From assembly GCA_964364615.1 (NCBI GenBank), contig CAYINH010000001.1, positions 25,965 to 61,889 on the forward strand: DNA of 35,925 bases. Reading direction: 5' to 3'. The position numbers were made by a program, and so were the translations under genes. Every line of letters begins with the position of its first letter. The stretch's first letter is position 1. This document shows, piece by piece, positions 3-28,083 of this stretch. The notes beneath the pieces were generated by a model. The model ran no database searches. It was not told where the DNA came from and was given only the letters and a program-made list of their open reading frames with translations. The DNA comes from an uncultured Gemmatimonadaceae bacterium. GTDB lineage: Bacteria; Gemmatimonadota; Gemmatimonadetes; Gemmatimonadales; GWC2-71-9.

Positions 3-815
3 GGAGCCGACTCGCTCGAATTCCGGGATATCCATGCCCTGAGCGCCGACCTGGCTTGGGCCATGACCGCCGGGCCGGGGCCCGCCTCCCGGATCTACCG
101 CACCACCGATGGCGGGAAGCACTGGGTGTTGCAGTGGACCAACCAGGAACCCAGGGCCTTCTTCGACTGCCTCTCCTTCTGGGACGAGCGACGCGGGATC
201 GCCATCAGTGACGGAGTGGATGGGGCGTTCGTGCTGACGGCCACCGACGATGGGGAGACCTGGCGGCGGGTACCGCCCGAGAGTTCGCCACCGGCCCGCG
301 AAGGGGAGGGGCTCTTTGCCGCGAGCGGGACCTGTCTCGTCACCCGCGGGACGAATCGAGCCTGGTTCGGCACCGGGGTCAATGCGGGACGGGTGGGGCG
401 GACCACCGATGGCGGCCGGAGCTGGTCTCTGGTCAACACTCCGATCCTCCAGAGCACCGGGACCGCGGGCCTCACCTCGCTGGTCTTCTTTGACGACCGG
501 ATCGGGCTCGGCGTCGGCGGGGATGTGGCCGCGCCGGACAGCCTGCGGGACCGGGTAGTGATGACCGAGGACGGGGGCGCCACCTGGCGGCTGGGCGGTG
601 ACCTGCCGTTTGGCGGGGCGGCCTTCGGCGCCGCGATGGTCGGTGGACACACCGCAGTCGCGGTGGGTCCGAAGGGGTCGGCCTGGACCAGTGACGGGGG
701 GAAGAGTTGGGCCGCGCTGGACACCCGGGACTACTGGAGCGTGGGGTTCGCCGGCAACAGCGGCTGGATGGTGGGCCCCGGAGGGAGAATCACCAAGGTG
801 GAATTCGCCAAGTGA
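3..815 (+). CDS. BNR/Asp-box repeat beta-propeller protein (Ycf48/sialidase-like), 5' end outside window
   Basis: The track ORF is 63..815, but the same frame is open from base 3 (GADSLEFRDIHALSADLAWA precedes the ATG). The gene therefore probably starts upstream of the window. Five regularly spaced Asp-box motifs (S/T-x-D-x-G-x-x-W) are present: TTDGGKHW, TDDGETW, TTDGGRSW, TEDGGATW, TSDGGKSW. G/C third-position bias is strong. Confidence 0.85.
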   Translation, partial: GADSLEFRDIHALSADLAWAMTAGPGPASRIYRTTDGGKHWVLQWTNQEPRAFFDCLSFWDERRGIAISDGVDGAFVLTATDDGETWRRVPPESSPPAREGEGLFAASGTCLVTRGTNRAWFGTGVNAGRVGRTTDGGRSWSLVNTPILQSTGTAGLTSLVFFDDRIGLGVGGDVAAPDSLRDRVVMTEDGGATWRLGGDLPFGGAAFGAAMVGGHTAVAVGPKGSAWTSDGGKSWAALDTRDYWSVGFAGNSGWMVGPGGRITKVEFAK

Positions 816-829
816 AGGTCGAGAAGGCG

Positions 830-1333
830 ATGGCCACCGTCTGGCACCTGGAGGTCCGGGGCCTGGCGGCACTGGTGCCGGCCCGCGGCGAGCGGCAGTT
901 TGGGCTGGAGCGGCTGATCGGTCCCACCCCGGCCGTTGCCAGGGCGCTGTACGCCGGCGTCGGGGCCGACTACCACTGGGCCGACCGGCTGCCGTGGAGT
1001 GATGCGGAGTGGGCTGAGCGAATCGCCGATCCCCGGGTCGAGTTCTGGCTCGCCAGTGAGGGCGGCACCCCGCTCGGCTACTTTGAACTCTGCCGGAATG
1101 ATCCGGAGACGATGGAAATCGCCTACTTCGGGCTGTTGCCGCATGCGGTGGGGAGGGGGCACGGTGGGCAGCTGCTGGAGGCCGCCGTCCGGCGGGGGTT
1201 CGAGGCTGGCGCCGAGCGGGTGTATCTCCACACCTGCTCGTTCGATCATCCGGCCGCTCTCAAGAACTACCAGGCCCGGGGGTTCACCGTCATCCGCACT
1301 GAGCAGAAGCTGGTGGCGGTGTCAGTGTCCTGA
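830..1333 (+). CDS. GNAT-family N-acetyltransferase
   Basis: This is the 3' part of track ORF 707..1333. The ATG at 830 follows the upstream stop (813-815); GTG at 812 is an alternative start. The acetyl-CoA-binding-type motif LLPHAVGRGHGGQLLEAAV (R-x-x-G-x-G) and the C-terminal NYQARGFTV segment are typical of the GNAT fold. Confidence 0.8.
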   Translation: MATVWHLEVRGLAALVPARGERQFGLERLIGPTPAVARALYAGVGADYHWADRLPWSDAEWAERIADPRVEFWLASEGGTPLGYFELCRNDPETMEIAYFGLLPHAVGRGHGGQLLEAAVRRGFEAGAERVYLHTCSFDHPAALKNYQARGFTVIRTEQKLVAVSVS

Positions 1334-1528
1334 GACCCCCGCCCGCATCATTCGCGTCACCTTTCGCTTGATCGGATTGTTCACCCAGTCGTAGTCCCCC
1401 ATTGCCACCAGGGTGTACCCGCTGTGCGGGGTACCGTAATAGTCCCCTGTTTGGTGCCTACGCGGACGGGAAGCCTACGCAAGCACCGACATGGCAATGC
1501 CATGCCTCGATCATTGAGTAAAGACTAT

Positions 1529-1582
1529 TTGTCATATTGACAAGGACATAAAATATCATTATTGTCCTTATCATAATGACAA
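1529..1582 (+). promoter_or_regulatory. AT-rich promoter/operator: 20-nt imperfect inverted repeat with consensus -35 and a -10; near-leaderless start
   Basis: This is the only strongly AT-rich stretch in the window. The left arm TTGTCATATTGACAAGGACA (1529-1548) matches the reverse complement of the right arm TGTCCTTATCATAATGACAA (1563-1582) at 17/20 positions, with a 14-nt A/T spacer. A perfect -35 TTGACA lies at 1537-1542, followed by a 17-bp spacer and TATTGT at 1560-1565. The ATG at 1576 sits inside the right arm about 10 nt after the -10, with no SD. Confidence 0.55.
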
Positions 1583-2898
1583 ACATACAAACCGTGCTCC
1601 TCCAACAACTTACCAACGCCATTGCCGGCCCGCTCCACGCCCTGACCCGGCGCGACGTCCGCCTCCCCGGAGTTCCGGGAAAGGCCATGGCGGTAGTCGG
1701 GATGCGACGAGCGGGGAAGACCACATTTCTGCGGCAGTGCCTGAGGGATCGGTTGGACCAGGGGCGGCCCAGGGAGTCCCTCGTCCTGCTGGGACTGGAA
1801 GACGACCGGCTGGCCGGAATCGAGACCTCGGACCTCGACTGGCTGGTGGAGGAATACTTCCGGCAATACCCAGCCCTCCGCCACGGGGGATCACTGACAC
1901 TCTGCCTGGATGAGATCCAGACCGTACCGGGCTGGGAACGATTGGCTCGGCGATTGATGGACACTGAGCAGATCGAACTCTTCTTGTCTGGATCGTCCGC
2001 GAAACTGTTGAGCCGGGAGGTCGCGACCGCCCTGCGGGGCAGGGCGATGGAAGTGCTGGTGCATCCGTTCTCGTTCCGGGAAGCGCTGCGGCACGCGGGT
2101 CAGGAGCCAGCCCAGTCCTGGGAGAAGCTCGACAAGGCCGAGCGCTCGACGCTGGAACACCACCTGCGCCAGTACCTGGTGGCGGGCGGCTTCCCGGAGG
2201 CCCAGGGCACGGAACCCCGCGATCGGATCCAGCTGCTCCGCAGCTACGTGGATACCACCGTCCTCCGGGACGTGATCGAACGCCACGCCGTCTCGAATCC
2301 GGTGGCGCTACGCTGGCTGCAGCGCCAACTCCTGGGATCCCCAGCCGGAGCATTCAGCGTCACCAAGTTCTTCGCGGCCATGCAGTCTCAAGGCATCGCG
2401 GTGGGCAAGGACACGGTCTACCAGTATCTATCCTACCTCGAGGATACCTTCCTGGTCCGGACGGTCTCGCTGCACACCGCCTCGGAGCGCCAGCGGATGG
2501 TGAATCCCCGCAAGGCCTATCCGGTGGATCCCGGGCTCATCAGCGTCTATGAGCGGTCCGGCCGGGCACAGGCCGGGCACGCGCTGGAGACCGCGGTGCT
2601 GGTCGAGCTGGAACGGCGCGGGTATGAGGCGGGCTACCTGAAAACCGCGGAGGACTGGGAGGTGGACTTCTTCGCGGTGGCTCCGGGGAAGCAATCACTC
2701 CTCATCCAGGTGTGCAGCGAGACTGGGAACCCGGCAACCCTCGACCGGGAACTCCGGGCTCTGCGGAGCGCCATGACCGTCCATCCAGCGGCGCGGCCAA
2801 TGCTGGTGACCCTCGATGGGGCACCGCCCCCTGCTGAGGTTCCGGACGGGGTCATCTGGTGGCCTGCCGCCCGATGGCTGCTCGAGCCAGAGGATTGA
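1576..2898 (+). CDS. AAA+ ATPase of the AAA_14 + DUF4143 (COG1373) type
   Basis: 440-aa ORF. Walker A is GMRRAGKTT (aa 42-50) and the Walker B-like segment is LTLCLDEIQ (aa 107-115). The C-terminal segment HALETAVLVELERRGYEAGYLKTAEDWEVDFF...LLIQVC resembles the PD-(D/E)xK-like DUF4143 module. Codon bias is host-like. Confidence 0.8.
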   Translation: MTNIQTVLLQQLTNAIAGPLHALTRRDVRLPGVPGKAMAVVGMRRAGKTTFLRQCLRDRLDQGRPRESLVLLGLEDDRLAGIETSDLDWLVEEYFRQYPALRHGGSLTLCLDEIQTVPGWERLARRLMDTEQIELFLSGSSAKLLSREVATALRGRAMEVLVHPFSFREALRHAGQEPAQSWEKLDKAERSTLEHHLRQYLVAGGFPEAQGTEPRDRIQLLRSYVDTTVLRDVIERHAVSNPVALRWLQRQLLGSPAGAFSVTKFFAAMQSQGIAVGKDTVYQYLSYLEDTFLVRTVSLHTASERQRMVNPRKAYPVDPGLISVYERSGRAQAGHALETAVLVELERRGYEAGYLKTAEDWEVDFFAVAPGKQSLLIQVCSETGNPATLDRELRALRSAMTVHPAARPMLVTLDGAPPPAEVPDGVIWWPAARWLLEPED

Positions 2899-2929
2899 GG
2901 ATGAGAGACTGCCCGAGGAGACCATCCTC
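2897..2929. terminator. Candidate bidirectional hairpin between convergent genes
   Basis: GAGGATG (2897-2903) pairs with CATCCTC (2923-2929), giving a 7-bp stem and 19-nt loop. The arms overlap the stop codons of both convergent genes (TGA 2896-2898; minus-strand stop 2928-2930). There is no U-tract. Confidence 0.3.
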
Positions 2930-4400
2930 ACCACCCCTTTCCCTCGATCAGCTTCATCAGGTTCCGCTTGGCCCGGTGCCGGGCGCGGATCGTCGCCAGG
3001 TATGAGGGAAAGTCAGCCGTCTGACCGATCCGCCCCATCAGGCGCCTGATACGACCCAGGAGGACGACGGCCTCCTGATAGGCGTCGTTGTTGGTCTGCT
3101 GAATGATCGGCTCGACCTGCTGCTGGTACACCGCGACCGCATCCGCGGGATGATCTTTCTCTCGCGTCTTGGCCAACTCCAGCCAGAGCCCGGCCTCGCA
3201 TCTTCCCGTCTGGGCTTCCTGCCAGGCCAGCTCGAACTCCTGTTCCCACAGGAACACCCGCACCAGCTCTGAATGGTCCCGCCGGCCAGCCCAGCCGAGC
3301 CCGGCACCGGCCGGAGCCCCACCAGAGGCGAGGGACGACCGAAGCTCGGCCAGCGCCCGGTCCCGCCACTGTTCCCACGCATCGATCAGCTCGGCATGGC
3401 GGTGGAGTTCCTGATACGCCCAAAGGAATGGAGTTTCCTCGAATCGCCGCCAGATCAACTGCATCGCCTCACCGTGGCGCCCCAGCCGATGGTAGCCGTT
3501 GGCGAGGAACTCCCGCAGTCGCTGATCCGTCTGGGTTGGAAAGGCGGCGACTCCGTGTTCGGCCCACTCCAGCGCGCGGTCAGGCTGCCCGGCTTCCTGG
3601 TACAGCTCGGCGATCTGGAGATAGTCGAATGCCTGGGAGAGATCCCGCGCCATGACGGCGACCAGCTCTTCGAGGTCGCCCGAAGTCTTCGCCAGCGTCT
3701 CCATGATGTGGGTAATCCGAAACCGTCCCGGATCGTAGGTCCTGTCCCCATCGCCGGGCCCCAGGGCCGGAAGCCGTGCCCACTCTTTCTCGGCCAGGCG
3801 GCGATACTCCGCCAACCCCTCTCTACCGAGCAGGTCAGCGTAGCGCTCCGCGGCCCCGAGGAAGGTGTCCCAATCGGTCCGAAGTTCCCATGAGAAGAGG
3901 GTCTTCGCCAGCACCTTCGGAGGAGGGACCGCCACCACGCAGGCGGCGTGGTGCAGTTGCTGGAGCCGCTCGAGGATCGGACTCATGTGGCCGTCCGAGT
4001 CGTCCATTCTGCCAAGCGCGGACTCGACCCGGCGCAGAGCATGCTCGATGAGAGTCATCGCCTCCGCACCGCGGCCGGCCTCCACCAGCCCCTCGAGCGC
4101 GTCCACTACGTCGTCAAGTCCCCTGGTGTAAGCGTACGCCTCCCGGTAGGGAATGAACCGCCGATGGCCCACCGCCTGATCGATCAACTGCCGGTATGTC
4201 TGCACACCCAGGTGCCGAGCACTGGCCGCGGCAACCTTCAACACCAGGTGGCGCCGCAGGTGGTCATCATCCTGGGCATGATCGAGCAGGAACTCGACCA
4301 GGGCTTCCTTGGGGGAGGCCAGCAGATCAGTGCGCAGTTTCGCCAACTCATCGCCGCTCATGGTTCCGTCACAGGTTGAAGGCGAAGAAGTGCCGGCCAC
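2928..4400 (-). CDS. Hypothetical all-alpha (TPR-like) repeat protein
   Basis: 490-aa ORF with strong G/C third-position bias; the alternative start ATG at 4361 gives MSGDELAKL. The protein is helix-rich and acidic/Arg-rich, with TPR-like segments (YLQIAELYQEAGQPDRALEWAEHGV, FLANGYHRLGRHGEAMQL). I see no catalytic motif. It lies 63 nt downstream of the 1340-aa regulator gene on the same strand. Confidence 0.7.
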   Translation of the reverse strand: MAGTSSPSTCDGTMSGDELAKLRTDLLASPKEALVEFLLDHAQDDDHLRRHLVLKVAAASARHLGVQTYRQLIDQAVGHRRFIPYREAYAYTRGLDDVVDALEGLVEAGRGAEAMTLIEHALRRVESALGRMDDSDGHMSPILERLQQLHHAACVVAVPPPKVLAKTLFSWELRTDWDTFLGAAERYADLLGREGLAEYRRLAEKEWARLPALGPGDGDRTYDPGRFRITHIMETLAKTSGDLEELVAVMARDLSQAFDYLQIAELYQEAGQPDRALEWAEHGVAAFPTQTDQRLREFLANGYHRLGRHGEAMQLIWRRFEETPFLWAYQELHRHAELIDAWEQWRDRALAELRSSLASGGAPAGAGLGWAGRRDHSELVRVFLWEQEFELAWQEAQTGRCEAGLWLELAKTREKDHPADAVAVYQQQVEPIIQQTNNDAYQEAVVLLGRIRRLMGRIGQTADFPSYLATIRARHRAKRNLMKLIEGKGW

Positions 4401-4432
4401 GACTGGTCCCGACCGCCCCTGATCGACCCGTG

Positions 4433-4470
4433 CCGGTAGCCCGTCGCCACGTTTCCGAACTGGCTACCGG
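4433..4470 (-). terminator. Intercistronic hairpin overlapping the stop codon of the 1340-aa gene
   Basis: CCGGTAGCC (4433-4441) pairs with GGCTACCGG (4462-4470), a perfect 9-bp stem with a 20-nt loop. The stop codon at 4464-4466 lies inside one arm. There is no U-tract, so this could be an attenuator or mRNA-processing site rather than a terminator. Confidence 0.3.
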
Positions 4471-7400
4471 CCTCGGTCGAGGATGCTCCAGTCCACGTCG
4501 GTCCGTACCCCGGTCCAGACCTGCAGCGGACCGACGAGCATCCTGGTGCCGACCGTCTGGCCGTACAAGGAGAAATTCCAGAAGTGTTGCGGATCCAGCA
4601 CGGCTCGGCCCCGGAAGATCGGGATTCCGTCGAGGGCTACCCCGCAGGTGCCATCCGGGAAGAGCTGGATGCGCAGACGATACCAGCTACCCGTTCTCAG
4701 TACGGAATCAGCCCTGAACTCATGCCCCAGTTGGTTGGAGGTCGCGCGCGCCAGCCCCATCGCCGCCGCGCCTTCTCCCCCCGGGATGTCGAATCCGCAA
4801 CTGGCCAGGGTGAGGATCCCGGACTGCAGGATTGGTCCCGACCGGAGGAACTTGACGCGGAGGCTTTGCCACTTCGGTTGTGAGATCGGTGTCGCGATGA
4901 CGGTTTCGAGCCCCAACCCCGCGCCACCGGCGATTCGGAGCCGGCTGAGCACCCCGCTCTCGAACTGTCCATCGCCATTGTTGATCAGTGCCGGGAGTCC
5001 GCCAGGGCCACTCACGATCGCGGGCACCGGATCGCCGTACCGCTGCCAGGCTTCCAGCGTCGGGTCTGTCCATTCCTCCCGAAACACGGTGGCCCAACCG
5101 GCGGGCACCACTTCCAGGACCAGCGAGTCGCGACGCCATCCGCCTGCGGACACCCGAACGGTCACCCGACCCGCTCTCAACGGATGGAGGACTCCGCTTT
5201 GTTTGGAGATCACAGCGATGGAGATGTCGGAGACCTCCCAGGCCTGGATCCCGGAGTGCACCGCCACCGTGTCTCCTTCCCCATTCAAGCCGACCGCCGT
5301 GAGGAAGTGGCTGATTCCCAGAATCGCCGGCCCCGACGCCGGCGCAATCCGGACGCTTTCGATGACTCCATGGCTGGCAGCAGGTTGATCCCAACCGAAA
5401 CGGTAGCCCCCGACCGTGATGGTCTCCTCCCACGGGCGCCAGCTCCCGGGTTCACCAACTCGGCCAACGACCAGGCGGCCGCCACCCAGCAGACTGACTC
5501 CGGCCATCCAGCTTCCTCCGGGCTGCACTCGAGCCGACTGCAAACCGGTTGTGACGACGGTAGTGATGCTGGTGGAGTCCACGGCCCATTCCGAAAGGAG
5601 CGCCCCATCGGAGTCGCCCGAGGATTGAAAGCGCAACCGGCGGGAGTCGGTCCAACTGAGCTCTCGAGGGTCCCGGTAGCTCGGGTAGCTCGGCGGGGTG
5701 CACTGTTCCCACGATCCGTCCACCGTGACCCAGCAGATCGTTCGGAGCCCGCTTGACGCGTCGAGTCGGGTGAAGGCAGCCCGGGTACCGTCAGGCGACC
5801 AGGCCGGATGACCGTCGGAGTCCGGCCCGGCAGTGAGCTGCCGGATCTCTCCGGTGGCCAGATCGAGAATGGCGATGTCGGAATCTTCGTCACCATGCGG
5901 AGTCCAGCGAGCGGTGCCGAAGACGATCGCCGATCCATCGGGGGCCCAGGCGGGACCGAAGTCGTCACCGGGCGCCTCCGTCAGCCGGCGGATCCGGCCA
6001 TCGGGCTCTCGCAACACCAGGTCGATGCCCCCGGAATCCGGGAACACACGGTCGAACAGGATGCGCCCCCCGTCGGGGGCCGGAACGATGGTGGTGTAGT
6101 ATGAGTACCCCTCAGGCAGCACCCCGATCCTCTTTCCCTCGGCGAGAGTGAGCGGCACCCCGACCGGCCAGCGAGCCGGGAAGATCGGAATCTGGTAGAG
6201 CTCCATTCGCTCTCCGGCCTGGACATCACCGATGGCGGCAAGCAGGGTGGCCTCCGGCAGTCCGGCGGGCCGCCGGGCCAGTACCATCGCCAGGGGCAGG
6301 AGCGAGAGTGCGGCCAGGGCGGCCGCCACCGCCGTCCTGCTGGTGTGGTAGGTCCACCGCTCCACCGCCCGCATCTCGTGGGTCAGCCGGGTGACCTCGC
6401 TGGGGCCGGCATCGGGGCCGAGCGCCTGCCGGGCCAGGGCCTGCAGGGTGATCGGCTCCTTCCGCTGCCGAGCCCTGCGGGCCTGGGCCTTGAACAGGCG
6501 GACGAGGGCGTCGGGTTGCCCGGCGTGGCGCCAGTGGCGTGCGGCGCGCTGGTAGGCGCCGGGATCCTGCCCGATCCGGCCCGAGGTCCAGCTCGCCAGA
6601 GCGGCATGCGCGGCGGTCAGTTGGTCGGGGGTCGCCAGGCGGAGGGCGGCGGCCGCGATCTCGTCGTGGGCCGGGAGCAGCAGTTCCCCGGTGCGGGTGA
6701 TGAGACCCGCCTGTTCGAGCTGGTCAACGGCGGCTTCCCAGCCGATCCCCATCGCGCTCAGGGCTCGGCCCGGGAGGGGGACCTGGGCCACCGCAAGCCA
6801 GCGGAGCGCGGTGCGTGGGTCTTCCCGCAGGGTCCCGATCCGGTGCCGCAGCGGATCCACTTCGGCCAGATCTGCGATCATCGCCTCGGGATCGTCCCAC
6901 CGCCACCCCTCGGCGCCGATCTCCAGCCGGCCGCGCTGGATGGCCAGCTGGAGCAGCTCCAGGCCAAGCAGCGGCGAGCCACCGGATGCCTGGTGGAGTA
7001 CTGCGGCAAGCCGGGGAACGGCCGGGTGGTTCGGGTCCGAACCCAGGCTGGTCAGGAGCGCCTCGACCGCGGGCAGGGTCAACGGTTCCAGGTTGACCCT
7101 GACGGTCGCTGACCCCGCCGGCACGCCCCGGGTTTCCTCACGCGCCGCCGTGACGACCAGTACCCGGGCCGGCGCGAGCCGGTCCACCAGCCCGTCAATG
7201 ATGGCCCATGACGTATCATCGACCCAATGCAGATCGTCCAGCAACAGGACGAGGGGCGCTTCCTGGGCCACGCTTTCCACCAGCTCGGCGAGGGCCAGGG
7301 TGCGGTAGGGGACGCTGCCCGGTGTGCGCCGGGTGGCCGGAGCGGCGGGCAGGAAGGAGGACAGCGAGGGCGCCAGGGTCGTGAGTTCCGCGAGGGCGTC

Positions 7401-8486
7401 GGGGGAGACCCCGGTGACGCCCGGCAACTGGCCCAGGGCGTGAACCAGATCCCCGAGGAAGGCGCAGTCGCGGTGGCGCTCCCCGGGGGTGCCACGAACC
7501 TGGACGATTCGTCCGCGGCTGATCCGGAGGCGTCGCGCCAATTCCTCGAGGAGTCTGGTCTTGCCGAGTCCGGCCGGCGCCGAGAGGTGGACGTGCCGCC
7601 CGGGCCGGGTCTGGCTCGCTGGCCAGGCCTCGAGCAGCAGGGCAAACTCGCGCTCCCGGCCAACCAGCTCCGGGTTCAGCCGATCAGGCCCGCCGGGCGC
7701 TGAACCGGCTGGGGACGGGACCTCCGGCTGGCGGAGCCGTGCCAGCAGCCGGGCGGTGGCAGGTTCCGGCTCCCGGTCGCTGGCGTGCAACTGGCCCAGG
7801 AGGGCGTCGGCTTCCAGCGACGCGCCGGGGCGATTGCCGGCGGCGAGCAGGGACTCGAGCAGCAGCCGCCAGGCGGGTTCAGAGGCGGGGCAGAGGTCGC
7901 GGGCCTTGCTGGCCAGGCGGAGGGCGTCCCTAGGGTTGGGCCGGTCCAGCGCCTGGCGGACCGCGGATTCGGCGGCGCGCAGGAAGGCTGCCTGGAGCTG
8001 GTCCCGCTCCAGGTCGGCCCACTGCTCGAACCCCGCGGCACCCGGCGCCGCGTAGGCGGGAAAGAACTGGCCGCCGTACAACCCGACCGCTTCGGAGGCG
8101 CGTCCGCCGTGGATTGCCGCCAGGAAGAGGTCCCGGTCACAGGTAAGGTCGAGATTCAGGGTGACCGATTCGCCAACCGAGGTGATCGCCTCGGCGCCCA
8201 GAGCGGCCCGAATCCGGTAGATGGTCTGGCGGAGGGTCTGTCGGGCGGCTTCCGGGGAACAGTCGTTCCAGAACCGGTCGGTCAGGTGCTCCCGGGTGGC
8301 GGTGCGGCCGGGTGAGCAGTGGAGATATACGACCAGGGCCAAGCCCTTGCCGGGGGGCAGGCGGTCGGCGCCGGGGGCTCCGGTTGCCTGGTCAGCCTCG
8401 GCCAGGCGTGCGGTACCCAGGGTGAGGAGCGTGAAACGCCCGTCAGCGGTTGGGAGGTGGGATTGGAATTGTCTCGGACTGCTCAT
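4464..8486 (-). CDS. Membrane-anchored SARP-family regulator fused to a STAND ATPase and periplasmic TolB-like propeller, Big_2 and LamG-like domains
   Basis: 1340-aa ORF starting at ATG 8486.
- aa 1-255: winged helix plus BTAD (LRQTIYRIRAAL; FFPAYAAPGAAGFEQWADLERDQL).
- aa ~270-460: AAA_16/STAND ATPase (Walker A APAGLGKTRLL, Walker B LVLLLDDLHWVD), followed by a helical region.
- aa ~717-737: one hydrophobic helix (TAVAAALAALSLLPLAMVLA) flanked by Arg.
- PD40/TolB-type repeats (PAWAPDGSAIVF, PAWSPDGTRAAFTR).
- aa ~1040-1127: Big_2-like Ig domain (AWEVSDISIAVISKQSGVLHPLRAGRVTVRVSAGG).
- A jelly-roll-like C-terminus of about 210 aa. Confidence 0.85.
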   Translation of the reverse strand: MSSPRQFQSHLPTADGRFTLLTLGTARLAEADQATGAPGADRLPPGKGLALVVYLHCSPGRTATREHLTDRFWNDCSPEAARQTLRQTIYRIRAALGAEAITSVGESVTLNLDLTCDRDLFLAAIHGGRASEAVGLYGGQFFPAYAAPGAAGFEQWADLERDQLQAAFLRAAESAVRQALDRPNPRDALRLASKARDLCPASEPAWRLLLESLLAAGNRPGASLEADALLGQLHASDREPEPATARLLARLRQPEVPSPAGSAPGGPDRLNPELVGREREFALLLEAWPASQTRPGRHVHLSAPAGLGKTRLLEELARRLRISRGRIVQVRGTPGERHRDCAFLGDLVHALGQLPGVTGVSPDALAELTTLAPSLSSFLPAAPATRRTPGSVPYRTLALAELVESVAQEAPLVLLLDDLHWVDDTSWAIIDGLVDRLAPARVLVVTAAREETRGVPAGSATVRVNLEPLTLPAVEALLTSLGSDPNHPAVPRLAAVLHQASGGSPLLGLELLQLAIQRGRLEIGAEGWRWDDPEAMIADLAEVDPLRHRIGTLREDPRTALRWLAVAQVPLPGRALSAMGIGWEAAVDQLEQAGLITRTGELLLPAHDEIAAAALRLATPDQLTAAHAALASWTSGRIGQDPGAYQRAARHWRHAGQPDALVRLFKAQARRARQRKEPITLQALARQALGPDAGPSEVTRLTHEMRAVERWTYHTSRTAVAAALAALSLLPLAMVLARRPAGLPEATLLAAIGDVQAGERMELYQIPIFPARWPVGVPLTLAEGKRIGVLPEGYSYYTTIVPAPDGGRILFDRVFPDSGGIDLVLREPDGRIRRLTEAPGDDFGPAWAPDGSAIVFGTARWTPHGDEDSDIAILDLATGEIRQLTAGPDSDGHPAWSPDGTRAAFTRLDASSGLRTICWVTVDGSWEQCTPPSYPSYRDPRELSWTDSRRLRFQSSGDSDGALLSEWAVDSTSITTVVTTGLQSARVQPGGSWMAGVSLLGGGRLVVGRVGEPGSWRPWEETITVGGYRFGWDQPAASHGVIESVRIAPASGPAILGISHFLTAVGLNGEGDTVAVHSGIQAWEVSDISIAVISKQSGVLHPLRAGRVTVRVSAGGWRRDSLVLEVVPAGWATVFREEWTDPTLEAWQRYGDPVPAIVSGPGGLPALINNGDGQFESGVLSRLRIAGGAGLGLETVIATPISQPKWQSLRVKFLRSGPILQSGILTLASCGFDIPGGEGAAAMGLARATSNQLGHEFRADSVLRTGSWYRLRIQLFPDGTCGVALDGIPIFRGRAVLDPQHFWNFSLYGQTVGTRMLVGPLQVWTGVRTDVDWSILDRGR

Positions 8487-8768
8487 GTGACGGCCGTGTT
8501 ACGCTGGGAGTTGCATCTTGGGGGCACGATCCAGAGGGAGTCCCAAGAACAACGCCTTGTCCCAGCTTCCACGCGGCATGGTCCGGCTTTTCTTCGGGTC
8601 GCACTGAAGAAGGTACCGGCTGGTGGGGGAGGGGGCAAGGTGTTCCTCCGGCGGCCCCAGCTGCGGTCGGAATCGTTTCACGCTGCTCGGGCGGATCGTT
8701 GTTCCGGATCAAGCGCTTCAAACTCCTTCGCCACCAGGATGGACATCATGAGCCACGTTTTCTGTAGA

Positions 8769-9605
8769 ATGCGCGAGTCGAAATCGTACTCCGTCAATTT
8801 GGGCCTGGTTGTGATCCTCGGGACCGCACTGGGTTCCGCATGCGTCCCGGCGAAACCGGTGGAGCCTCCAACGCCACTGCCTGCTGCGCGCTACGATTTC
8901 ACGCCTTCCGATTGCCAGCAGCCAGGTTCCACACGACTCACCTTGGCCGTCATCGCCCCGCGCTGGCAGACCCCGACCCAGGCAACGTCCAGCGCGGCAG
9001 CGATGTATACAGGTTACGCGGCCCCAAGGGTGTTCCTCGACCTCGCCAATGCGATGCGAGGGGACTTCCTCGAACTGGCATCGTGTCGCGGATACCTCGC
9101 CAAGGGTCCATACGATTCATTCGAGGCGATGGTCTTTCCGGATCGAGAGGCCTCACAACTTCTACTGGAGCCCGACCTGCAGATCGATGTCAGTATCACC
9201 AACCTCGAAGCGGTGCCCAAGGCCGGCTTGGCTGGCTTGTTCACCCGGGGGAATGAGATGAACCAGATCAGCGGGCAGGCCAGCATTGGTGGGCGCGTCA
9301 CGCTTACCCTCAAGGAACCGGTGACCAACACGCGTATGTGGACCCGAAGCATCGATGTGCCTTCGCAAGCGTTCGCGTTCACCAGTCAGCGCGACTATTC
9401 GACGAGCGCCATGACAGAAGATCAGGCTCGTGTAGCTCTTTTGGAGGACGGGGGCTTCCTTCGGCTGCTACTGCCCAAGCTTGAGGGCATGTATGGGGCG
9501 GTGCTCCAGACGGCGGAGAACTACCTGGATGCCCGTGAGGTCCGTACCGTGGCCACCCAGGCTGCCGACGTCCGGAAGCGGGGGGCGGTAACGATACCGA
9601 GATAG
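8769..9605 (+). CDS. Hypothetical lipoprotein
   Basis: This is the 3' part of track ORF 8319..9605. The ATG at 8769 gives MRESKSYSVNLGLVVILGTALGSAC, with a charged n-region, a hydrophobic core and a Cys lipobox-like end. Alternative ATGs lie at 8739 and 8748. There is no clear SD. GC3 is lower than in the flanking genes. Confidence 0.65.
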   Translation: MRESKSYSVNLGLVVILGTALGSACVPAKPVEPPTPLPAARYDFTPSDCQQPGSTRLTLAVIAPRWQTPTQATSSAAAMYTGYAAPRVFLDLANAMRGDFLELASCRGYLAKGPYDSFEAMVFPDREASQLLLEPDLQIDVSITNLEAVPKAGLAGLFTRGNEMNQISGQASIGGRVTLTLKEPVTNTRMWTRSIDVPSQAFAFTSQRDYSTSAMTEDQARVALLEDGGFLRLLLPKLEGMYGAVLQTAENYLDAREVRTVATQAADVRKRGAVTIPR

Positions 9606-9773
9606 TTTGCGGCCGCGCCTGTCGCTTGCCCAGCATTGGTCATTCTGCGCGTGGCAGCAGCAGCAAGGGGATCCCCAATCGATGGGTTAGGGTACAGTCT
9701 GCGAGAGTTGCATGGTCTTGCATGGCGTCTACGACCGCCTTGGCGAGATCCGTGAGTTGATGAGGAAACAACC

Positions 9774-10574
9774 ATGAAAGCGATGTGCCATATGCGACGG
9801 ACCCGGGTGGGTGATCGCGCCGGTCGCCGCCACCATAGCCTTGCCGCCTTAGCGATTCTCCTCCTCCTTGGTTGTTCATCGAGGAACGCACCGTCTGGCG
9901 ATTCCGAGGTCAGAGCAGCCATCGAGTCAATGTTCAACGAACCTGACGTCGGTGTGGGGATCGGCGACATTGGGTTTGGGACTGGCCGCAGCGACATTCG
10001 CAAGAGCCAAGATCAGCTCTCAGAACTCCCTATCTATCGGGCCCTTGCAGCGAAGGGACTAATCAGTATCGCAAACGAAAGGGACCTTACAAGCAACTTC
10101 GGCGGTTGGGGGGATTGGTTTGCCCTTACCCAAGATGGCATCAAGAGAACCGCGACCGTCTCCATTGAGGATGAGAACCTGAAACAGCTACCGCCCTGCA
10201 AAGCGGAAGGTGGCAATGTGAACTGCCGAGTTCGCTTCGATGGCGTCGACCAACTCTGGCTGAGAATCGGCAAAAGCAAGATCCAAGACATTGTCGCCAA
10301 CGATAGCGTACTCATCGGCGCGACTCGCTACCGTGTTGTCATGGGAACCCATACCTATGAAGTGCCACCTGACTTGCAGGCTGCCATGGATTCAGCGAGA
10401 GGTGCTATGGGCCGTGAGCGTCGTTTCAAGGTGTTGCTCGAGTATGATCCATTTGTCAAGAGGTTCAAGTTGGTAGCCCTGGATCTTGCTGAGCGCTCCA
10501 AAGACTTTAGTTCGTCGAGCGTCGATGATCTACTGGCACAACTGAGACTCTGCGGCCCGTCGGGCTGCCAGTAA
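9774..10574 (+). CDS. Hypothetical lipoprotein
   Basis: 266-aa ORF. SD GAGGAA lies 7-8 nt upstream of ATG 9774. The signal peptide with lipobox is HHSLAALAILLLLGCSS. I recognise no domain. Codon third positions are A/T-rich compared with the flanks. Confidence 0.7.
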   Translation: MKAMCHMRRTRVGDRAGRRHHSLAALAILLLLGCSSRNAPSGDSEVRAAIESMFNEPDVGVGIGDIGFGTGRSDIRKSQDQLSELPIYRALAAKGLISIANERDLTSNFGGWGDWFALTQDGIKRTATVSIEDENLKQLPPCKAEGGNVNCRVRFDGVDQLWLRIGKSKIQDIVANDSVLIGATRYRVVMGTHTYEVPPDLQAAMDSARGAMGRERRFKVLLEYDPFVKRFKLVALDLAERSKDFSSSSVDDLLAQLRLCGPSGCQ

Positions 10575-10642
10575 GGTCCCGACCCCCGCAGAATGAGTGA
10601 TGGTGCGACAACCACCTTGACATGTACCGTAAGGATGAAATC

Positions 10643-13600
10643 ATGAAAGCTCTGGATTGGGCTCACTCCACACCTTCGCACCAGCGGCGTTGGTTACGAC
10701 AGTCTCGTTCAGTGGCAATCGCCGTCTTCGCTTCGCTTTCCTGCTCCCAACCTACTGCCCTAGAGCCGGTCGCGTCCGTTGCAATTCTCTCAGCACCTGA
10801 TGTCATGCTGGTGTCAAGCACCACGCAACTGAAGGCCGATCTCCGTGACACGAATGGTCGGACCCTTAATGCGAGAGCGGTGTCATGGGCTTCCAGTAAC
10901 TCCGCAGTACTCATGGTCTCGGCCTCAGGCCTCGCGACCGCGACCACCGCAGGCGGGCCCGTCTCTGTAACCGCTACTTCGGAAGGGCGGTCTGCCTCGG
11001 TGTCGATCGAGGTCGTATCGCTAGAAGTGGCGCCAGTCAATGACACCCTCTACGTCGGATCAAGCCGCGTCTTCGCCGTCGTAGGCGTGGGGGCCTCCGG
11101 TGCAGTGGGCCAGCTCCCTCCTGGCGCAGTGTCCTGGTCGACGTCAAATAGCCTCGTCGCGACTATCACACTGTCCGGTATTGTCCGCGGTCAGGCTCCC
11201 GGGACTGCACTCGTATCGGCGGTCTTGGCTGGTGTCTCGGCTTCAGGGAGCGTGATGGTAGAATCGGCACCGTCGGTTACGCAGCCTTCAAAGACTGTGG
11301 TTGGCACGGTGATCGTTCCTTCAGGTGTGAACCTCGAAGGAGTGACTATTCTAGCAGGAGCGGCGGGAGTCACTTCCGCAAACGCGCACGGCCAGTTCTC
11401 TATCACTACCTCCTCTGCCATCGAGACGGCACTAGTCGCCATGTACTCGGACGCGGTGATCGGCTTAGCAATCGCCCCAGCGCAGGGCGGCACGTCGATC
11501 GGAATCGACCCCCAAAGCACCGCCGTAGCGCTGGTATATCTTACCCCGACATTCGCGGTAGCGCCGCAAGGTGTAACGGCTGAGCTTCTGCAGCTACTCA
11601 GTACAATCCCGGCTGTTAGGAGTCTCGGCGACTTCCTGGGCAACACGACCACGCAGCGAATCGGGCTGCCAGATACAACAAACATGCAGTTCATGGTCCT
11701 CTACAGGGCTGCGGTTCAAGCGGCAGAGGCAACGTTGTTCGCACAGGCAGCAACCCCGGCTCAGTCAATTGCCCCGTCGCCATGGCAAGCCAGCGGGGTG
11801 AAGCTCACGTGGACATCGCCAACCCAAGCCCGTCTGTCGGTCCAACTACAGAACATATATGGACGCGACGCCGACGTTTACGCCGACCCTGCGAATCCAT
11901 CTGGCAATCCAGTCAGTGATCTGTCGGCGTTGAGTTGGAACCAGGCGCTTAACGATCGCATTTGGCTCCCTCCTGCAGACTATATCCCGAATGTCCTGAG
12001 CCTCTCTAGCTGGCTCAGAATCGCCCGTGGCGAGTACGGTCCATCTGCACCACGGAGCATGCAAGTGGATTTTACGTTCGCCTCTCCGCGGTATCGAGTC
12101 TCGGCATACGGAATTGGCGAGAACAACTGGACGGCCGACTGGGCCCGGATGCAGGGTGGTGAAAGGAGTCGGGCCATTCTACCAATGGGGATCACGGGTC
12201 TCTTTGGGGTAGTGATGCCCATAGTCGAGGTCGTGAGCGGCATCAAGATCATCGCGGCGGGAGGTGCCACTGTGCCGTCCCCGTTGATGGAACGGTTCAA
12301 GGTCTTTGCTGGCTCTCTGAACTTCACACGCTGTCTCACCGTCGGCGGAGTGGACGCTGTACCTTGCGTCTTTGACGTCATCTTCAAGGCGTCAATCACG
12401 GACCAAGCCTTCCTGCGAGAGACCCTCCTCGCCCTTGCCGCTTACCAGGGGATCACCCTATCCCGCACCGCCCTCACCGCAATCATGAACAATGTCAACG
12501 TCCTCGTGAGAACGGTGTCAAGCGTAACGGGAGTGGCCAAGGTGGGTCAGACACTCTATGCAGTCCGTAACGCGCGGCCCCGCGAGGATTTCGATTTTGC
12601 ATACAACGATTTGATCGGCGCAGACGCGATCCAGGTGTTCGGAGGGAATAATCAGGTGGGCAGCCAGGGGGCCGTGCTCTTCCAATCGCTTGCAGCACGC
12701 GCGGTGAATAGCGAAGGTGGCCCGGTGGCCAATGCATGGGTGACCTGGGCCCCGGATGTCGCCAACGGGGCGCCAAGCCCCGCCGCTGCGGTGACTGATC
12801 AACAGGGCGTTGCGCGAACAACATGGACCCTCGGTTCGGGTGCCCAACAGGGGATGACAGCGACCCTTGCAGGAACTGCGCGCACTGCCCGCTTTGCCGC
12901 AACGACGTCTGCACCACTTGGCAGCGCAACAGGCAGGGTAATCCACGGTCAAACCTCTGTCGGGATCGGTAGTGCACTAGTGGATGCTCGAACCGCAGCG
13001 GGGAGTGCAGGCGTCACCCAAACCGATGCTCAGGGGTTCTACACCATTACATTGCCGGCCGGAGCGTATGATTTGGTTATCACACGAACTGGGTTCGTCG
13101 CGGCCACCTTGTACGGGGTCACGGTCACGGCTGGATCGTCGCTGTCGATTCAAGACGTGCCCCTCGTGCCAACAAGTTCCTTCCTTGGTGGAATCGCTGG
13201 GACCGTTCGCGATGCGCAGACTTTCGGAGGTCTCACAAACGTCTCGATTGAGCTGCGAAGTGGCGTGAATAATGCGACGGGCAGCGCCCTCGCTACCACA
13301 ACGAGTGGCACCGCTGGCGCGTTTCAATTCAGCGGCCTTGCCGCCGGTACCTATTCGTTAAGGGCAGTTAGGTCAGGTTATTCGGTGGGTAGCCGGACTG
13401 GCATTGCCGTCGGCAGTACGACCGTCTCAGGCCAAGATATTGTAATGTCAGCGACGTCCGGGTCGGTGAGAATCGTTTTGACATGGGGCGCCGAGCCTGG
13501 TGACCTTGATTCTCATCTGACGGGTCCTATACCAGGCGGTGGTCGGTTTCATGTCTTCTATCAGATGCTCGGTTCCCTCACTGCGAGCCCCTTTGCTGCG

Positions 13601-14014: not shown

Positions 14015-14216
14015 GATGGAAGCGATCTGATGGGGAGCATTGGTTCGCAGTACCACTGAGAAGTTCAGACCCCCCCTCGCCCCGCGGACCCGAAATGGGC
14101 CGGAGCCCGGTTAGGGGCTGTGAATAAACAACTTGACGATCGCTCTACGGGGATGGTCCTGCCTCAGTTGAAATGTGACTCCTACCCGCTCCATGCTGTG
14201 GAGCCTGGTGGAGTCC

Positions 14217-14489
14217 ATGAGTCGAGAGAACGGCAAGGTCCGGCGGCACTTCCTGCCTGACGAGAAGGCGACCATCCTCCGGCGGCATCTGGCGGACAAG
14301 GTGCCCGTGTCGGACCTCTGCGACGAGTACCAGATCCAACCGAGCCTCTTCTACCTGTGGCAGCGGCAGGCGCTGGAGCATCGCAGCGCCGCGTTCCAGG
14401 ATGGGCGCACGCGGCGGGGCCAGCAGCAGAGCGCACAGAGTGAGCGCCACCGCATCGCCGCGTTGGAAGCGAAGCTCGCGAAGAAGGAC
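14217..14489 (+). mobile_element. Truncated IS3-family transposase OrfA (HTH_Tnp_1) fragment
   Basis: MSRENGKVRRHFLPDEKATILRRHLADKVPVSDLCDEYQIQPSLFYLWQRQALEHRSAAFQDG...RIAALEAKLAKKD matches the N-terminal HTH plus the start of the leucine-zipper of IS3-group OrfA proteins. After KKD (14489) the frame degenerates into Arg/Pro/Gly-rich sequence that is antisense to the next gene. There is no orfB. A possible left end is TGTGAATAAACAACTTGACG at 14119. Confidence 0.7.
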
Positions 14490-14595
14490 ACTCGCCCCGG
14501 TCAGAATCACCGCAGGCATGACCTCGAGCCGTGTGGCGAGGCTCTGGGTGAGGTGCCTGGGGAGCGGAGATCTGCGGCTGGTCGCCGGGTCGGTG

Positions 14596-15357: not shown

Positions 15358-15514
15358 GGCGACGCTCCTTCCAGTGCAGCGTGGGGTATCCTCCAAAGAT
15401 AACGGGACTGGAATGCCTCCCGCCCTGGCCGGCCGGGCAACGTCTCTGGCATTCGGCCCTTCCCGTCTATTTTACGGGGAGACCGGCCGTCCTGGCCGGA
15501 GCCAAGGAGCCGAG

Positions 15515-16504
<990 letters not shown>

Positions 16505-16514
16505 GGAGGATCAG

Positions 16515-16820: not shown

Positions 16821-16824
16821 CCCG

Positions 16825-18074: not shown

Positions 18075-18115
18075 TCTCCCGGTCTGACCGGCCGGTGGAC
18101 GCCTCGGAGCAACCG

Positions 18116-19537: not shown

Positions 19538-19670
19538 CAAGGAGGCCGGCTGGAGGGTGACGGCTCCCGGGTCACGAATTCGGCGGAAGGCCTCTTCTTC
19601 ATCCGGCTGCCCAACGGCGACCTGAGTCTGGAGCCGCTGGGGACGCTGACCAGGAACCGGCCCGACTGAG

Positions 19671-20528: not shown

Positions 20529-20539
20529 CGGGGTTCCGG

Positions 20540-21052: not shown

Positions 21053-21071
21053 GAGTATCTCCTTGAAAGGG

Positions 21072-22247: not shown

Positions 22248-22309
22248 GTGCATCTCCCCAAGAGACGTCCGCCCCCGTCCGGAGAACCGGCCGGGCGTGT
22301 CGTACCAGG

Positions 22310-28073: not shown

Positions 28074-28083
28074 ACCGCCTTCC

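Follow-up and report, generated by a model that had tools for sequence, protein, structure and literature searches.

Large SARPs such as AfsR and, in particular, the Streptomyces SARP-LALs PimR, SanG and FilR begin with an OmpR-type winged helix-turn-helix (wHTH) and a BTAD domain, behind which lie a P-loop STAND NOD carrying a His-Asp motif and a TPR sensor. In AfsR, inhibition of the SARP module by NOD and TPR is relieved by ATP, and the module binds as a dimer arranged side by side (PMC10936776). AfsR is switched on and off through its HD motif (bioRxiv 10.64898/2026.09.02.748808), and the AfsR structures 8k60 and 8hvr present the SARP domain within transcription initiation complexes. A 2024 review considers SARPs exclusive to actinobacteria (PMC10972967). 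Transmembrane transcription regulators (TTRs) work from the membrane, and single-pass proteins are their commonest class (PMC10269533); in ToxR, TcpP and CadC, one transmembrane (TM) helix joins an N-terminal cytoplasmic OmpR-type wHTH to a periplasmic sensor at the C-terminus. STAND/NLR proteins (MalT, Apaf-1/CED-4, plant NLRs, bacterial Avs, 6mfv) share an NBD-HD-WHD NOD with Walker A/B, sensor-1 Arg, GxP and xHD motifs, and the order effector, NOD, arm, sensor.

The 1340-aa protein described here is encoded in a window of 35,925 nucleotides, the whole stretch of Gemmatimonadaceae DNA that was analysed. Inside the cell it is predicted to have a DNA-binding module of the antibiotic-regulator type and an ATP switch resembling that of NLRs; a sensor of 600 residues would lie outside, and one helix would connect the two sides. 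This architecture suggests a new way of carrying a signal across the bacterial membrane. Each element named in the original prediction is present, in the order given there (Table 1). In the literature searched, no description of a SARP-STAND-TM-propeller-Ig-β-sandwich architecture was found, and the text of the TTR census mentions neither BTAD, AAA_16 and PD40 nor Gemmatimonadota. The combination had been called unusual, which holds against this literature but not in sequence databases, where a large family is automatically labelled 'DNA-binding SARP family transcriptional activator' or 'AAA family ATPase'.

Table 1. Features of the SARP-STAND gene and of other genes in the window (AF2, structural model).
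Feature	Position (nt)	Strand	Residues (aa)	Basis or remark
Complete gene	4464..8486	(-)	1340 + stop codon	unbroken ORF
OmpR-type winged helix-turn-helix DNA-binding domain	8139..8438	(-)	17-116	Trans_reg_C, AF2/Foldseek
BTAD helical domain	7731..8138	(-)	117-252	Pfam, Foldseek
Pro/Gly-rich flexible linker	7671..7730	(-)	253-272	pLDDT, identity
P-loop nucleotide-binding domain of STAND NOD (AAA_16)	7092..7670	(-)	273-465	
Walker A, APAGLGKT	7557-7580	(-)	303-310	GLGKT at aa 306
Walker B, LLLDDLHW	7224-7247	(-)	414-421	
NOD helical domain and winged-helix domain	6630..7091	(-)	466-619	
GxP motif, G503-S-P505-L506	6969-6980	(-)		G503/P505/L506 invariant
Switch motif, A-H607-D608	6663-6671	(-)		H607-D608 invariant
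Six-helix 'arm', NOD to membrane	6339..6629	(-)	620-716	AF2 helices
Single transmembrane helix	6276..6338	(-)	717-737	hydropathy
Extracytoplasmic TolB-like PD40 β-propeller and its N-terminal strands	5382..6275	(-)	738-1035	
Big_2-type Ig-like domain	5103..5381	(-)	1036-1128	family profile, homologue Pfam matches
C-terminal β-sandwich, ~210 aa, family-specific	4467..5102	(-)	1129-1340	AF2, Foldseek
Candidate defence gene PDC-S01	1576-2898			E 6.7e-90
Candidate defence gene PDC-S62	2928-4400			E 1.8e-41
Simpler membrane-anchored SARP, wHTH-BTAD-TM-TPR	30876-33716			same window

The gene and its family

The ORF begins with ATG and contains zero internal stops, and protein P0001 of a public collection is identical to its product. 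NCBI, JGI, ENA and Logan assemblies, which are independent of one another, yielded at least 120 homologues over the full length (1300-1390 aa, 33-51% identity, 96-100% coverage), and all of these align collinearly across the TM region. In 68 of 79 homologous genomic loci the ORF is intact over at least 1250 codons. The protein belongs to a large Gemmatimonadota family, with at least 427 loci in species-representative genomes and a Gemmatimonadota origin for 78 of the 79 loci inspected. The family shows paralogous expansions and a fast-evolving sensor: pairwise identity is 43-51% in the cytoplasmic domains and 31-35% in the ectodomain, as would be anticipated for a sensor whose coupled output is conserved.

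Cytoplasmic domains

In the AF2 model, wHTH and BTAD together form a SARP module that is AfsR-like in structure. This region superposes on the AfsR SARP domain with TMt 0.64-0.66, and its Foldseek matches comprise AfsR (8k60/8hvr) and EmbR (2ff4). The N-terminal wHTH-BTAD had been predicted originally. In Pfam, BTAD (aa 130-251) scores 23.4-24.6 bits, above its cutoff of 22.1, and Trans_reg_C (aa 48-98) reaches 24.3-25.6 bits, just below the gathering cutoff of 26.2; homologues match the two profiles in 17/20 and 19/20 cases, respectively. Both domains are the best-conserved parts of the protein (49-51% pairwise identity), and the wHTH residues R65, W73 and R86 are invariant among homologues. 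By sequence the protein resembles AfsR only marginally (E 0.16), which, like the Trans_reg_C score below the cutoff, counts against the activator function proposed below; a profile comparison shows weak similarity to the DNA-binding domain of ToxR (E 0.19). The linker that follows has a pLDDT below 50 (aa 254-271) and a pairwise identity of only 19.5%.

AAA_16 was matched by Pfam at aa 273-445 (E 3e-18) and in all 20 homologues. Both Walker motifs are located where the original prediction had placed them, and its STAND label is strengthened by the invariance of G306, G308, K309, D417, D418 and the sensor-1 Arg R449, together with the GxP and His-Asp motifs, and by Foldseek matches of the NOD to NLRs and bacterial STANDs (Sr35, ZAR1, 6mfv STAND-TPR, Avs3, CED-4, NLRC4; E 5.6e-8 to 1e-6; pLDDT of the N-terminal model 83). 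Weak MarR-type wHTH profile matches fall within the NOD at aa 537-598. The arm helices (aa 620-714) are modelled with pLDDT of ~82-94 and are 32% identical between homologues.

Ectodomain

The ectodomain model has a pLDDT of 86. Its PD40 propeller, foreseen from the start, gives two Pfam matches (E 6.7e-12), matches the TolB PDB profile with E 2.8e-20 and, in Foldseek, TolB 2w8b with E 1.3e-15 over ~300 columns at ~20% identity; it contains an invariant Cys pair, C918/C929. TolB orthology was rejected, as the NCBIfam TolB equivalog model scores 41.9 bits and has a cutoff of 343. TolB of the Tol-Pal system is secreted, whereas here the propeller would be membrane-anchored, with Ig and β-sandwich domains behind it.

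For Big_2, the protein itself has no direct Pfam match, but the assignment is supported indirectly through the family, whose profile (aa 1033-1122) matches LigA/LigB Big_2 structures with E 6e-9 and whose ectodomains were matched by Pfam in 14 of 22 cases. The C-terminal domain, modelled with ~15 β-strands and holding the invariant Cys pair C1230/C1281, has zero Pfam or PDB matches by sequence. Foldseek relates it to propeller-plus-lectin sialidases and to a phage 'Concanavalin A-like lectin/glucanase' protein. The LamG-like C-terminus of the original prediction is likewise supported indirectly, as a β-sandwich probably of ConA/LamG type; model and matches are consistent with such a fold but do not prove it. 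This domain occurs in 469 representative proteins at E<=1e-30 and in 1216 at E<=1e-3; in the best 150 of these 1216 it is always C-terminal, within full-length proteins of ~1340 aa or shorter ones. All seven shorter carriers inspected begin mid-domain and are therefore fragments.

Transmembrane helix and topology

TM helix and topology were assigned from hydropathy scales. Residues 717-737 are the sole strongly hydrophobic stretch of the protein, with a Kyte-Doolittle 19-residue score of 2.37 (next best segment 1.38) and a summed Hessa-type dG of -0.07 (next best +7.1), which confirms the one helix expected there. Among 120 homologues, 109-112 have their top hydrophobic segment at this position, while helix identity is only 21%; evidently, position is kept and sequence is not.

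The ToxR/CadC-like topology already proposed, with the N-terminus in the cytoplasm and the C-terminus outside, is supported, because flanking K/R residues among homologues amount to 3.3 on the N side and 1.6 on the C side, because the ectodomain Cys count is even in 116 of 120 homologues (the cytoplasmic half showing no such parity), and because the domains C-terminal of the helix are of periplasmic type. Domains of the PD40/TolB and Big_2 kinds typically belong to exported proteins. In the 1340-aa protein itself the charge bias is slight (3 versus 2), since two Arg directly follow the helix.

Comparison with known systems and proposed mechanism

The switch His has nearly the same position as in AfsR (H607 here, H594 in S. 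peucetius AfsR). The NTPase is of AAA_16 type, like the AAA_16 / LAL-guanylate-cyclase type of SARP-LALs (PMC10972967), whereas AfsR has NB-ARC. Large SARPs have a TPR sensor, whereas here a short arm leads into a TM helix and a sensor of 600 aa predicted to be extracytoplasmic; the host is a gemmatimonadote and not an actinobacterium, and no biosynthetic gene cluster lies near the gene. ToxR and CadC have a short linker from the DNA-binding domain to the membrane, whereas here ~600 residues (BTAD, STAND NOD, arm) intervene, and a putative ATP-driven switch further separates the protein from TTRs. Unlike in known STAND/NLR proteins, the sensor would lie across a TM helix in another compartment, and the place of the effector is taken by a SARP DNA-binding module.

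We estimate at about 60% the probability that the protein is a one-component transcription activator that crosses the inner membrane once, has its N-terminus in the cytoplasm and uses a periplasmic sensor to gate an ATP-dependent STAND switch. The cytoplasm would contain the SARP module (DNA binding, RNA-polymerase recruitment), the complete STAND NOD and the helical arm, and the periplasm the propeller-Ig-β-sandwich sensor. At rest, ADP would occupy the NOD, His607-Asp608 of the winged helix would lock it closed, and the SARP module would be inhibited by NOD and arm, the logic expected from AfsR, where ATP relieves inhibition by the NOD (PMC10936776). Binding of a putative ligand, or ectodomain clustering, might then be relayed via TM helix and arm, most plausibly through altered lateral association, so that the NOD could exchange ADP for ATP and oligomerise at the membrane. 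The oligomer would set SARP modules side by side on repeats in putative target promoters, overlapping the -35 element, and transcription would be switched on from the membrane, as with ToxR/CadC-type regulators. The relay is the weakest link of this mechanism, because a single TM helix poorly conducts the conformational clamp usual between STAND sensor and NOD; located in another compartment behind this helix, the sensor could not clamp the NOD directly.

Alternative explanations

A misassembly or an indel near 6.2-6.4 kb, a possibility named in the original prediction, might have fused two genes, and GC content indeed drops right at the TM boundary, from 72.7% in the cytoplasmic part to 66.6% in the ectodomain part. 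The identical step, however, was found in 25/25 homologous loci tested, and the ORF is intact in most loci. Since the collinear homologues from independent assemblies run through the TM region, this family evidence excludes a chimera or hidden frameshift: judged by sequence comparison the gene is real, and the chance of an artefact is negligible. Alternatively, the hydrophobic segment might form an amphipathic helix or one buried inside the protein, leaving the entire SARP-STAND-propeller chain in the cytoplasm, like WD40-bearing STANDs. C-terminal β-propeller sensors are common among STANDs, the NOD has NLR matches, the charges flanking the helix are nearly balanced in the protein itself, and the TM call derives from hydropathy scales. 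Yet this reading is very improbable: the single strongly hydrophobic stretch, with so distinct a dG, is fixed in position but not in sequence, divides a half with even, paired Cys from one without parity and precedes domains usually found in exported proteins.

A membrane-bound protein might also be an inactive tethered precursor, from which an envelope signal at the ectodomain would trigger site-1 and site-2 (intramembrane) cleavage, the freed SARP-STAND part acting like cytoplasmic AfsR or a SARP-LAL. Such release is equally compatible with the architecture and removes both the single-helix relay problem and the DNA-to-membrane problem. The TM helix contains helix-destabilising Pro/Gly/Ser (LSLLPLA), frequent in intramembrane-protease substrates, and the TTRs CadC and TcpP are under proteolytic control according to two reports (PMC11484849, PMC11323476). 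We nevertheless regard it as unlikely: no protease gene is conserved beside family members, the juxtamembrane region (19-21% identity) contains no conserved cleavage motif, and cleavage as sole control would make the invariant, complete set of STAND motifs redundant, unless these serve as a second checkpoint. More doubtful still is an NLR-like role in surveillance of the envelope or in defence, with the STAND oligomer as output and wHTH-BTAD as a protein-interaction module or non-specific DNA-binding effector. The likeness of the NOD to immune NLRs and Avs3, the paralogous expansions and fast-evolving sensor, and the two candidate defence genes adjoining the SARP-STAND gene in this window would suit it; but PADLOC gave no match for the protein, defence-gene neighbours were found at none of the 79 homologous loci, a toxic effector domain is absent, and the most conserved domains, with their invariant wHTH residues, are those that superpose on AfsR bound in an RNAP-promoter complex.

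Genomic neighbourhood

Two negative results count against the proposed activator: the homologous loci examined share no conserved neighbour gene that would point to a regulon, and a search of the 260-bp intergenic region upstream of the gene yielded neither operator-like direct repeats nor a promoter. The window does contain a second, simpler SARP (BTAD E 2.7e-14), whose SARP module is 32% identical over 225 aa to that of the 1340-aa protein. It has no NTPase; its one TM helix (aa 274-292) directly follows BTAD, and its extracytoplasmic part is a TPR domain. The presence of this membrane-anchored SARP indicates that the host uses membrane-tethered SARPs.

Gene structure and family

The gene at window position 4464-8486 (minus strand) is one ORF with an ATG start and 1340 codons without internal stop. 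The original prediction had described its product as a chimera of a wHTH-BTAD module and a Walker-type ATPase, joined by one hydrophobic helix to a TolB-like propeller, a Big_2 domain and a LamG-like C-terminus. At the N-terminus, BTAD scored above its Pfam cutoff and Trans_reg_C just under, and the AF2 model of this part superposes on the SARP domain of AfsR; the ATPase motifs and the helix lie where they had been claimed. NCBIfam gave two partial, far sub-threshold matches, one to a kinase/cyclase fusion, in its ATPase part, and the other to TolB (TIGR02800, 41.9 bits where the cutoff is 343.15). The protein is not orthologous to TolB; the propeller alone aligns. PF26549 and PF26550, precomputed for most of the 120 homologous proteins discussed below, were not found in the window protein by a local Pfam scan, even at E<=1.

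Features of the window protein, of the genes around it and of two paralogue-bearing loci
Feature	Position	Evidence or remark
Trans_reg_C	aa 48-98	Pfam 24.3 bits (up to 25.6), cutoff 26.2
BTAD (PF03704)	aa 130-251	Pfam 23.4-24.6 bits, cutoff 22.1
AAA_16	aa 273-445	Pfam E 3e-18
GLGKT	aa 306	Walker A
LLLDDLHW	aa 414	Walker B
Hydrophobic stretch TAVAAALAALSLLPLAMVLA	aa 718-737 (nt 6276-6338)	
PD40 repeats (n=2)		Pfam E 6.7e-12, window protein
Propeller	to ~aa 1035	TolB fold match E 1.3e-15, ~300 columns, 20% identity; family profile E 2.8e-20
Big_2-type Ig domain	~aa 1036-1128	Profile to LigA/LigB E 6e-9; Pfam in 14/22 homologues
β-sandwich	last ~210 residues	~15 strands in AF2 model
AAA_14/DUF4143/Mrr_cat gene, next after the DUF6880/TPR gene	1576-2898 (+)	PADLOC PDC-S01, E 6.7e-90
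DUF6880/TPR gene, downstream	2928-4400 (-)	PADLOC PDC-S62, E 1.8e-41
Divergent upstream gene	8749-9605 (+)	Probable ATG 8749; no Pfam match; likely N-terminus MSHVFCRMRESKSYSVNLGLVVILGTALGSAC, lipoprotein-like signal
ORF of 266 aa	in low-GC stretch ~9000-14900	No Pfam matches
Big_2/Big_1/CarboxypepD_reg surface-type protein, 1130 aa	10622-14014	In low-GC stretch
Transposase-type HTH ORF	14175-14861	In low-GC stretch
Simpler membrane-anchored SARP, 946 aa	30876-33716 (-)	wHTH-BTAD-TM-TPR, without ATPase
Locus L013, full-length paralogues	8001-11867 and 12059-16051	Tandem
Locus L059, full-length paralogues	498-4484 and 8001-11999	Within 4 kb, opposite strands

A protein search over 5.8 billion clusters returned 413 matches at E<=1e-5. 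The best 120 of these are drawn from NCBI, JGI, ENA and Logan assemblies; for the most part they measure 1290-1390 aa, with 33-51% identity and in most cases 96-100% query coverage, and their source annotation reads 'DNA-binding SARP family transcriptional activator' or 'AAA family ATPase [Gemmatimonadota]'. A genome scan with one genome per species yielded at least 427 coding loci, and the best 79 of them, from 78 different assemblies, were inspected. Gemmatimonadota MAGs account for 78, the remaining one being a 4-kb contig binned as Acidimicrobiia, and in 68 the ORF is unbroken over 1250 codons or more. Two loci each hold a pair of full-length paralogues, which indicates local duplication.

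Misassembly or a hidden frameshift, raised together with the original prediction as a possible source of the architecture, can be excluded. The homologues are collinear and their alignment is unbroken across the TM region. At the TM boundary GC content drops from 72.7% in the coding sequence of the cytoplasmic half to 66.6% in that of the ectodomain, which could have hinted at a chimera; this step recurs in 25 of 25 homologous loci tested (mean difference 3.8 points). Being common to all of them, it is therefore due to the differing amino-acid composition of the two halves.

Cytoplasmic half

The AF2 model of aa 1-716 (alignment of 20 sequences, pLDDT 83) consists, in order, of a β-strand/helix wHTH, an all-helical BTAD, a disordered Pro/Gly linker (aa 254-271), an α/β P-loop domain, a helical domain, a winged helix (aa 555-605) and six helices (aa 620-714) belonging to the arm that leads to the membrane. 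In Foldseek searches against the PDB, the SARP part matched the SARP domain of AfsR in its complexes with RNAP and promoter (8k60/8hvr; 256 columns, TMt 0.64-0.66, rmsd 4.3-4.6 A) as well as EmbR (2ff4). The nucleotide-binding part (NOD) matched wheat Sr35, ZAR1, Avs3, CED-4, NLRC4 and the bacterial STAND-TPR protein 6mfv (407 columns, rmsd 6.1 A). Similarity at the sequence level is weak (AfsR E 0.16, ToxR E 0.19). The OmpR-type N-terminal wHTH of the SARP family is present, as seen from the AfsR superposition and from Trans_reg_C matches in 19 of 20 homologues (E<=0.01, best 5.6e-7). The BTAD, matched by PF03704 in 17 of 20 (best 7.8e-11), stands directly behind it, as the family requires.

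AAA_16 was matched in all 20 homologues, and the P-loop domain carries the Walker A, Walker B and sensor-1 Arg elements of STAND NTPases. In a 60-sequence alignment, G306, G308 and K309 of Walker A, D417 and D418 of Walker B (hhhhDD) and the sensor-1 residue R449, which closes a VVTAAR strand, are invariant. Family alignments likewise show an invariant GxP motif in the helical domain (G503, P505, L506) and, in the winged helix, an invariant H607 followed by a D608 conserved in at least 90% of sequences. H607-D608 is the counterpart of the MHD motif in plant NLRs. In Streptomyces peucetius AfsR the F/Y-HD motif (residues 594-595) is the activation switch, and its mutation renders AfsR constitutive (bioRxiv 10.64898/2026.09.02.748808).

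Predicted membrane helix and topology

No stretch of the protein other than aa 717-737 is of membrane grade; this segment has a 19-residue Kyte-Doolittle score of 2.37 (next best 1.38) and a summed Hessa-type dG of -0.07 (next best +7.1). The most hydrophobic segment occupies the equivalent place in 109-112 of the 120 homologues, at a pairwise identity of just 21%; a position kept while the sequence varies marks it as a membrane anchor rather than a helix of a folded core. On average, the K/R residues in its flanks number 3.3 on the N side versus 1.6 on the C side. The C-terminal half has an even number of cysteines in 116 of 120 homologues (four in 77, six in 35), a parity absent in the cytoplasmic half, and it includes two invariant pairs, C918/C929 on neighbouring propeller strands and C1230/C1281 within the β-sandwich. 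Hydropathy, charge bias and Cys parity, together with DNA-binding and ATPase modules that need the cytoplasm, support a predicted N-in/C-out orientation. The ToxR/CadC-like build that had been proposed is supported by the combination of a wHTH, a unique TM-grade helix and, C-terminal to it, even Cys counts and periplasm-type domains.

Ectodomain

The ectodomain (aa 738-1340) was modelled by AF2 as an all-β structure in three parts (alignment of 22 sequences, pLDDT 86, pTM 0.75). The anticipated TolB-like propeller was found both by fold and by family profile. The Big_2 assignment stands for the family, by profile and by Pfam, and the window protein itself has no Big_2 match in Pfam at E 0.05. 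Of the LamG-like C-terminus, a β-sandwich was recovered in the model, with no sequence relative in Pfam or in the PDB, where the best E was 0.61. Fold matches covering propeller and sandwich together are sialidases bearing lectin-like domains, and a viral-library match is annotated 'Concanavalin A-like lectin/glucanase'; ConA/LamG-like is a plausible and probably apt label for the sandwich.

A profile of this C-terminal domain (A5) searched against 1.84 billion representatives matched 1216 proteins at E<=1e-3, 469 of them at E<=1e-30. Among the best 150 of the 1216, the domain is always at the C-terminus of proteins of ~1340 aa or shorter. Seven shorter proteins that were inspected begin mid-domain and are therefore N-terminally truncated fragments. 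Judged by these matches, the sandwich looks specific to the SARP-STAND family. Pairwise identity is 31-35% in the ectodomain versus 48-51% in wHTH, BTAD and NBD, so by this measure the ectodomain evolves faster than all three. The family has expanded into paralogues whose ectodomains diverge fast, and this implies many different cues from the environment or the envelope.

Comparison with known classes

SARPs have been described as actinobacterial and linked to antibiotic clusters, a review calling them exclusive to actinobacteria (PMC10972967), whereas the best loci of the present family lie, with one exception, in Gemmatimonadota, and no biosynthetic genes are found nearby. The same review distinguishes small, medium and large SARPs and SARP-LALs, none of them with a TM helix (PMC10972967). 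Large SARPs of the AfsR type are soluble and combine the SARP module with an NB-ARC NOD and a TPR sensor; the window protein, in contrast, matches AAA_16 and not NB-ARC, lacks TPR and has a TM helix and a β-rich ectodomain behind its arm. Its NTPase being of the AAA_16/LAL type, the cytoplasmic half is therefore closest to SARP-LAL among described SARPs (PMC10972967). Transmembrane transcription regulators of the ToxR/CadC type unite a DNA-binding domain, a TM segment and an extracytoplasmic domain in one polypeptide, and with its predicted topology the window protein fits this description.

Each module is known, and their combination was not found described in the literature searched. A full-text search for transmembrane STAND or SARP regulators and for Gemmatimonadota SARPs yielded nothing relevant, which does not imply absence elsewhere; the text of the census of transmembrane transcription regulators mentions neither BTAD, AAA_16, PD40 nor Gemmatimonadota. 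The nearest item concerns an expansion of oyster (metazoan) receptors that carry a TM helix and intracellular STAND modules (PMC8195603). Large and auto-annotated as it is, the family is not a rare one; its members are uncharacterised and their signalling logic undescribed.

Proposed mechanism and its rivals

STAND/NLR proteins are understood as intracellular sensors in which the sensor domain physically clamps the nucleotide switch. The window protein keeps the canonical STAND order of effector, NOD, arm and sensor, with a TM helix inserted between the last two. The sensor, normally contiguous with the NOD and in the same compartment, would on the predicted topology lie beyond the membrane, and such a separation would require a different coupling mechanism. 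In AfsR, NOD and TPR inhibit the SARP module until ATP binding lifts the inhibition, and the SARP domains form a side-by-side dimer over the -35 element, in contact with sigma region 4 as well as with the core of RNAP (PMC10936776). ToxR-type regulators activate transcription from the membrane-bound state (PMC10269533).

In the main reading, proposed by analogy with AfsR and transmembrane transcription regulators, the resting protein would be ADP-locked and the active state an ATP-bound oligomer put together in the membrane plane. Control from outside would be exerted as ectodomains, TM helices and arms associate in response to a ligand; this relay through a single helix is the least secure step. 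A bolder reading, with a probability of roughly 0.4, is that the family is a true 'transmembrane NLR': an outside ligand would act through one TM helix to make the NOD exchange ADP for ATP and oligomerise, and the oligomer would directly assemble a SARP array that activates transcription at the membrane. The main rival is regulated proteolysis, by which a soluble SARP-STAND module would be freed from the anchor. Less likely is an NLR-like role outside transcription, given that the protein is best conserved in its DNA-binding module.

If signalling does proceed as a transmembrane NLR, this mode would differ from histidine kinases, chemoreceptors, Ser/Thr kinases, anti-sigma cascades and simple ToxR-type regulators, would add a further bacterial route for transmembrane signal transfer, and would represent a bacterial analogue of a cell-surface receptor fused to an intracellular NLR. 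The SARP-STAND regulator type extends beyond actinobacteria, into a poorly studied phylum of soil and water. The His-Asp motif offers a handle, since the autoactive HD-to-GV exchange made in AfsR could bring regulons to light even without known ligands.

Genomic context

Genomic context gives no pointer to a regulon. Clustering of ORFs within 5 kb of the gene in the 79 loci (on a given side, about 44-57 of them are flanked by 3 kb or more of sequence) revealed no neighbour shared by over 10. The largest cluster, variable in position and orientation, comprises Pkinase-TM-PD40 kinases: L009 12942-16358 (+) and related ORFs in about 10 loci encode a Ser/Thr kinase with a TM helix and, as ectodomain, a PD40 propeller (in L009, Pkinase E 4e-50, PD40 E 2e-26). 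BLAST of the kinase ectodomain against that of the family found nothing at E<=0.01, both being PD40 by Pfam. With such kinases near family members in several Gemmatimonadota genomes, PD40 ectodomains seem, in this phylum, to be coupled to more than one kind of cytoplasmic output.

Among the gene's own neighbours in the window, the lipoprotein-like gene upstream is the only one that recurs, with homologues near family members in just two loci, L008 (56% identity) and L062 (31%); in L062 it again lies immediately upstream and divergent. The gene is a weak candidate for a target or partner. The 260 bp between the two genes (8487-8748) contain short palindromes alone, with no direct repeats and no sigma-70-like promoter.

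Just downstream of the SARP-STAND gene, the two adjacent genes matched by PADLOC candidate models make up a small candidate defence islet, and neither of them is present in any of the 79 homologous loci. The window protein itself matched no PADLOC family at E<=0.01, known anti-phage STAND proteins (Avs, bNACHT and others) included. On the other side, GC content falls to 56-61% at ~9000-14900, versus ~66-73% elsewhere, and this stretch is possibly a horizontally acquired insert.

A phenylacetate-type catabolic cluster occupies 15296-30728, with two PaaA/PaaC-family oxygenase subunits, a fused E1 dehydrogenase/transketolase-like protein, a 3-hydroxyacyl-CoA dehydrogenase, an enoyl-CoA hydratase and a PaaZ-like aldehyde dehydrogenase-MaoC fusion. 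Directly behind it comes the gene of the simpler SARP, whose BTAD (E 2.7e-14) belongs to a region 32% identical to aa 40-254 of the window protein. One strong TM helix at aa 274-292 (Kyte-Doolittle 2.44) is followed by about 650 presumably periplasmic residues with TPR, and this protein shows that membrane-tethered SARPs belong to the host's repertoire.
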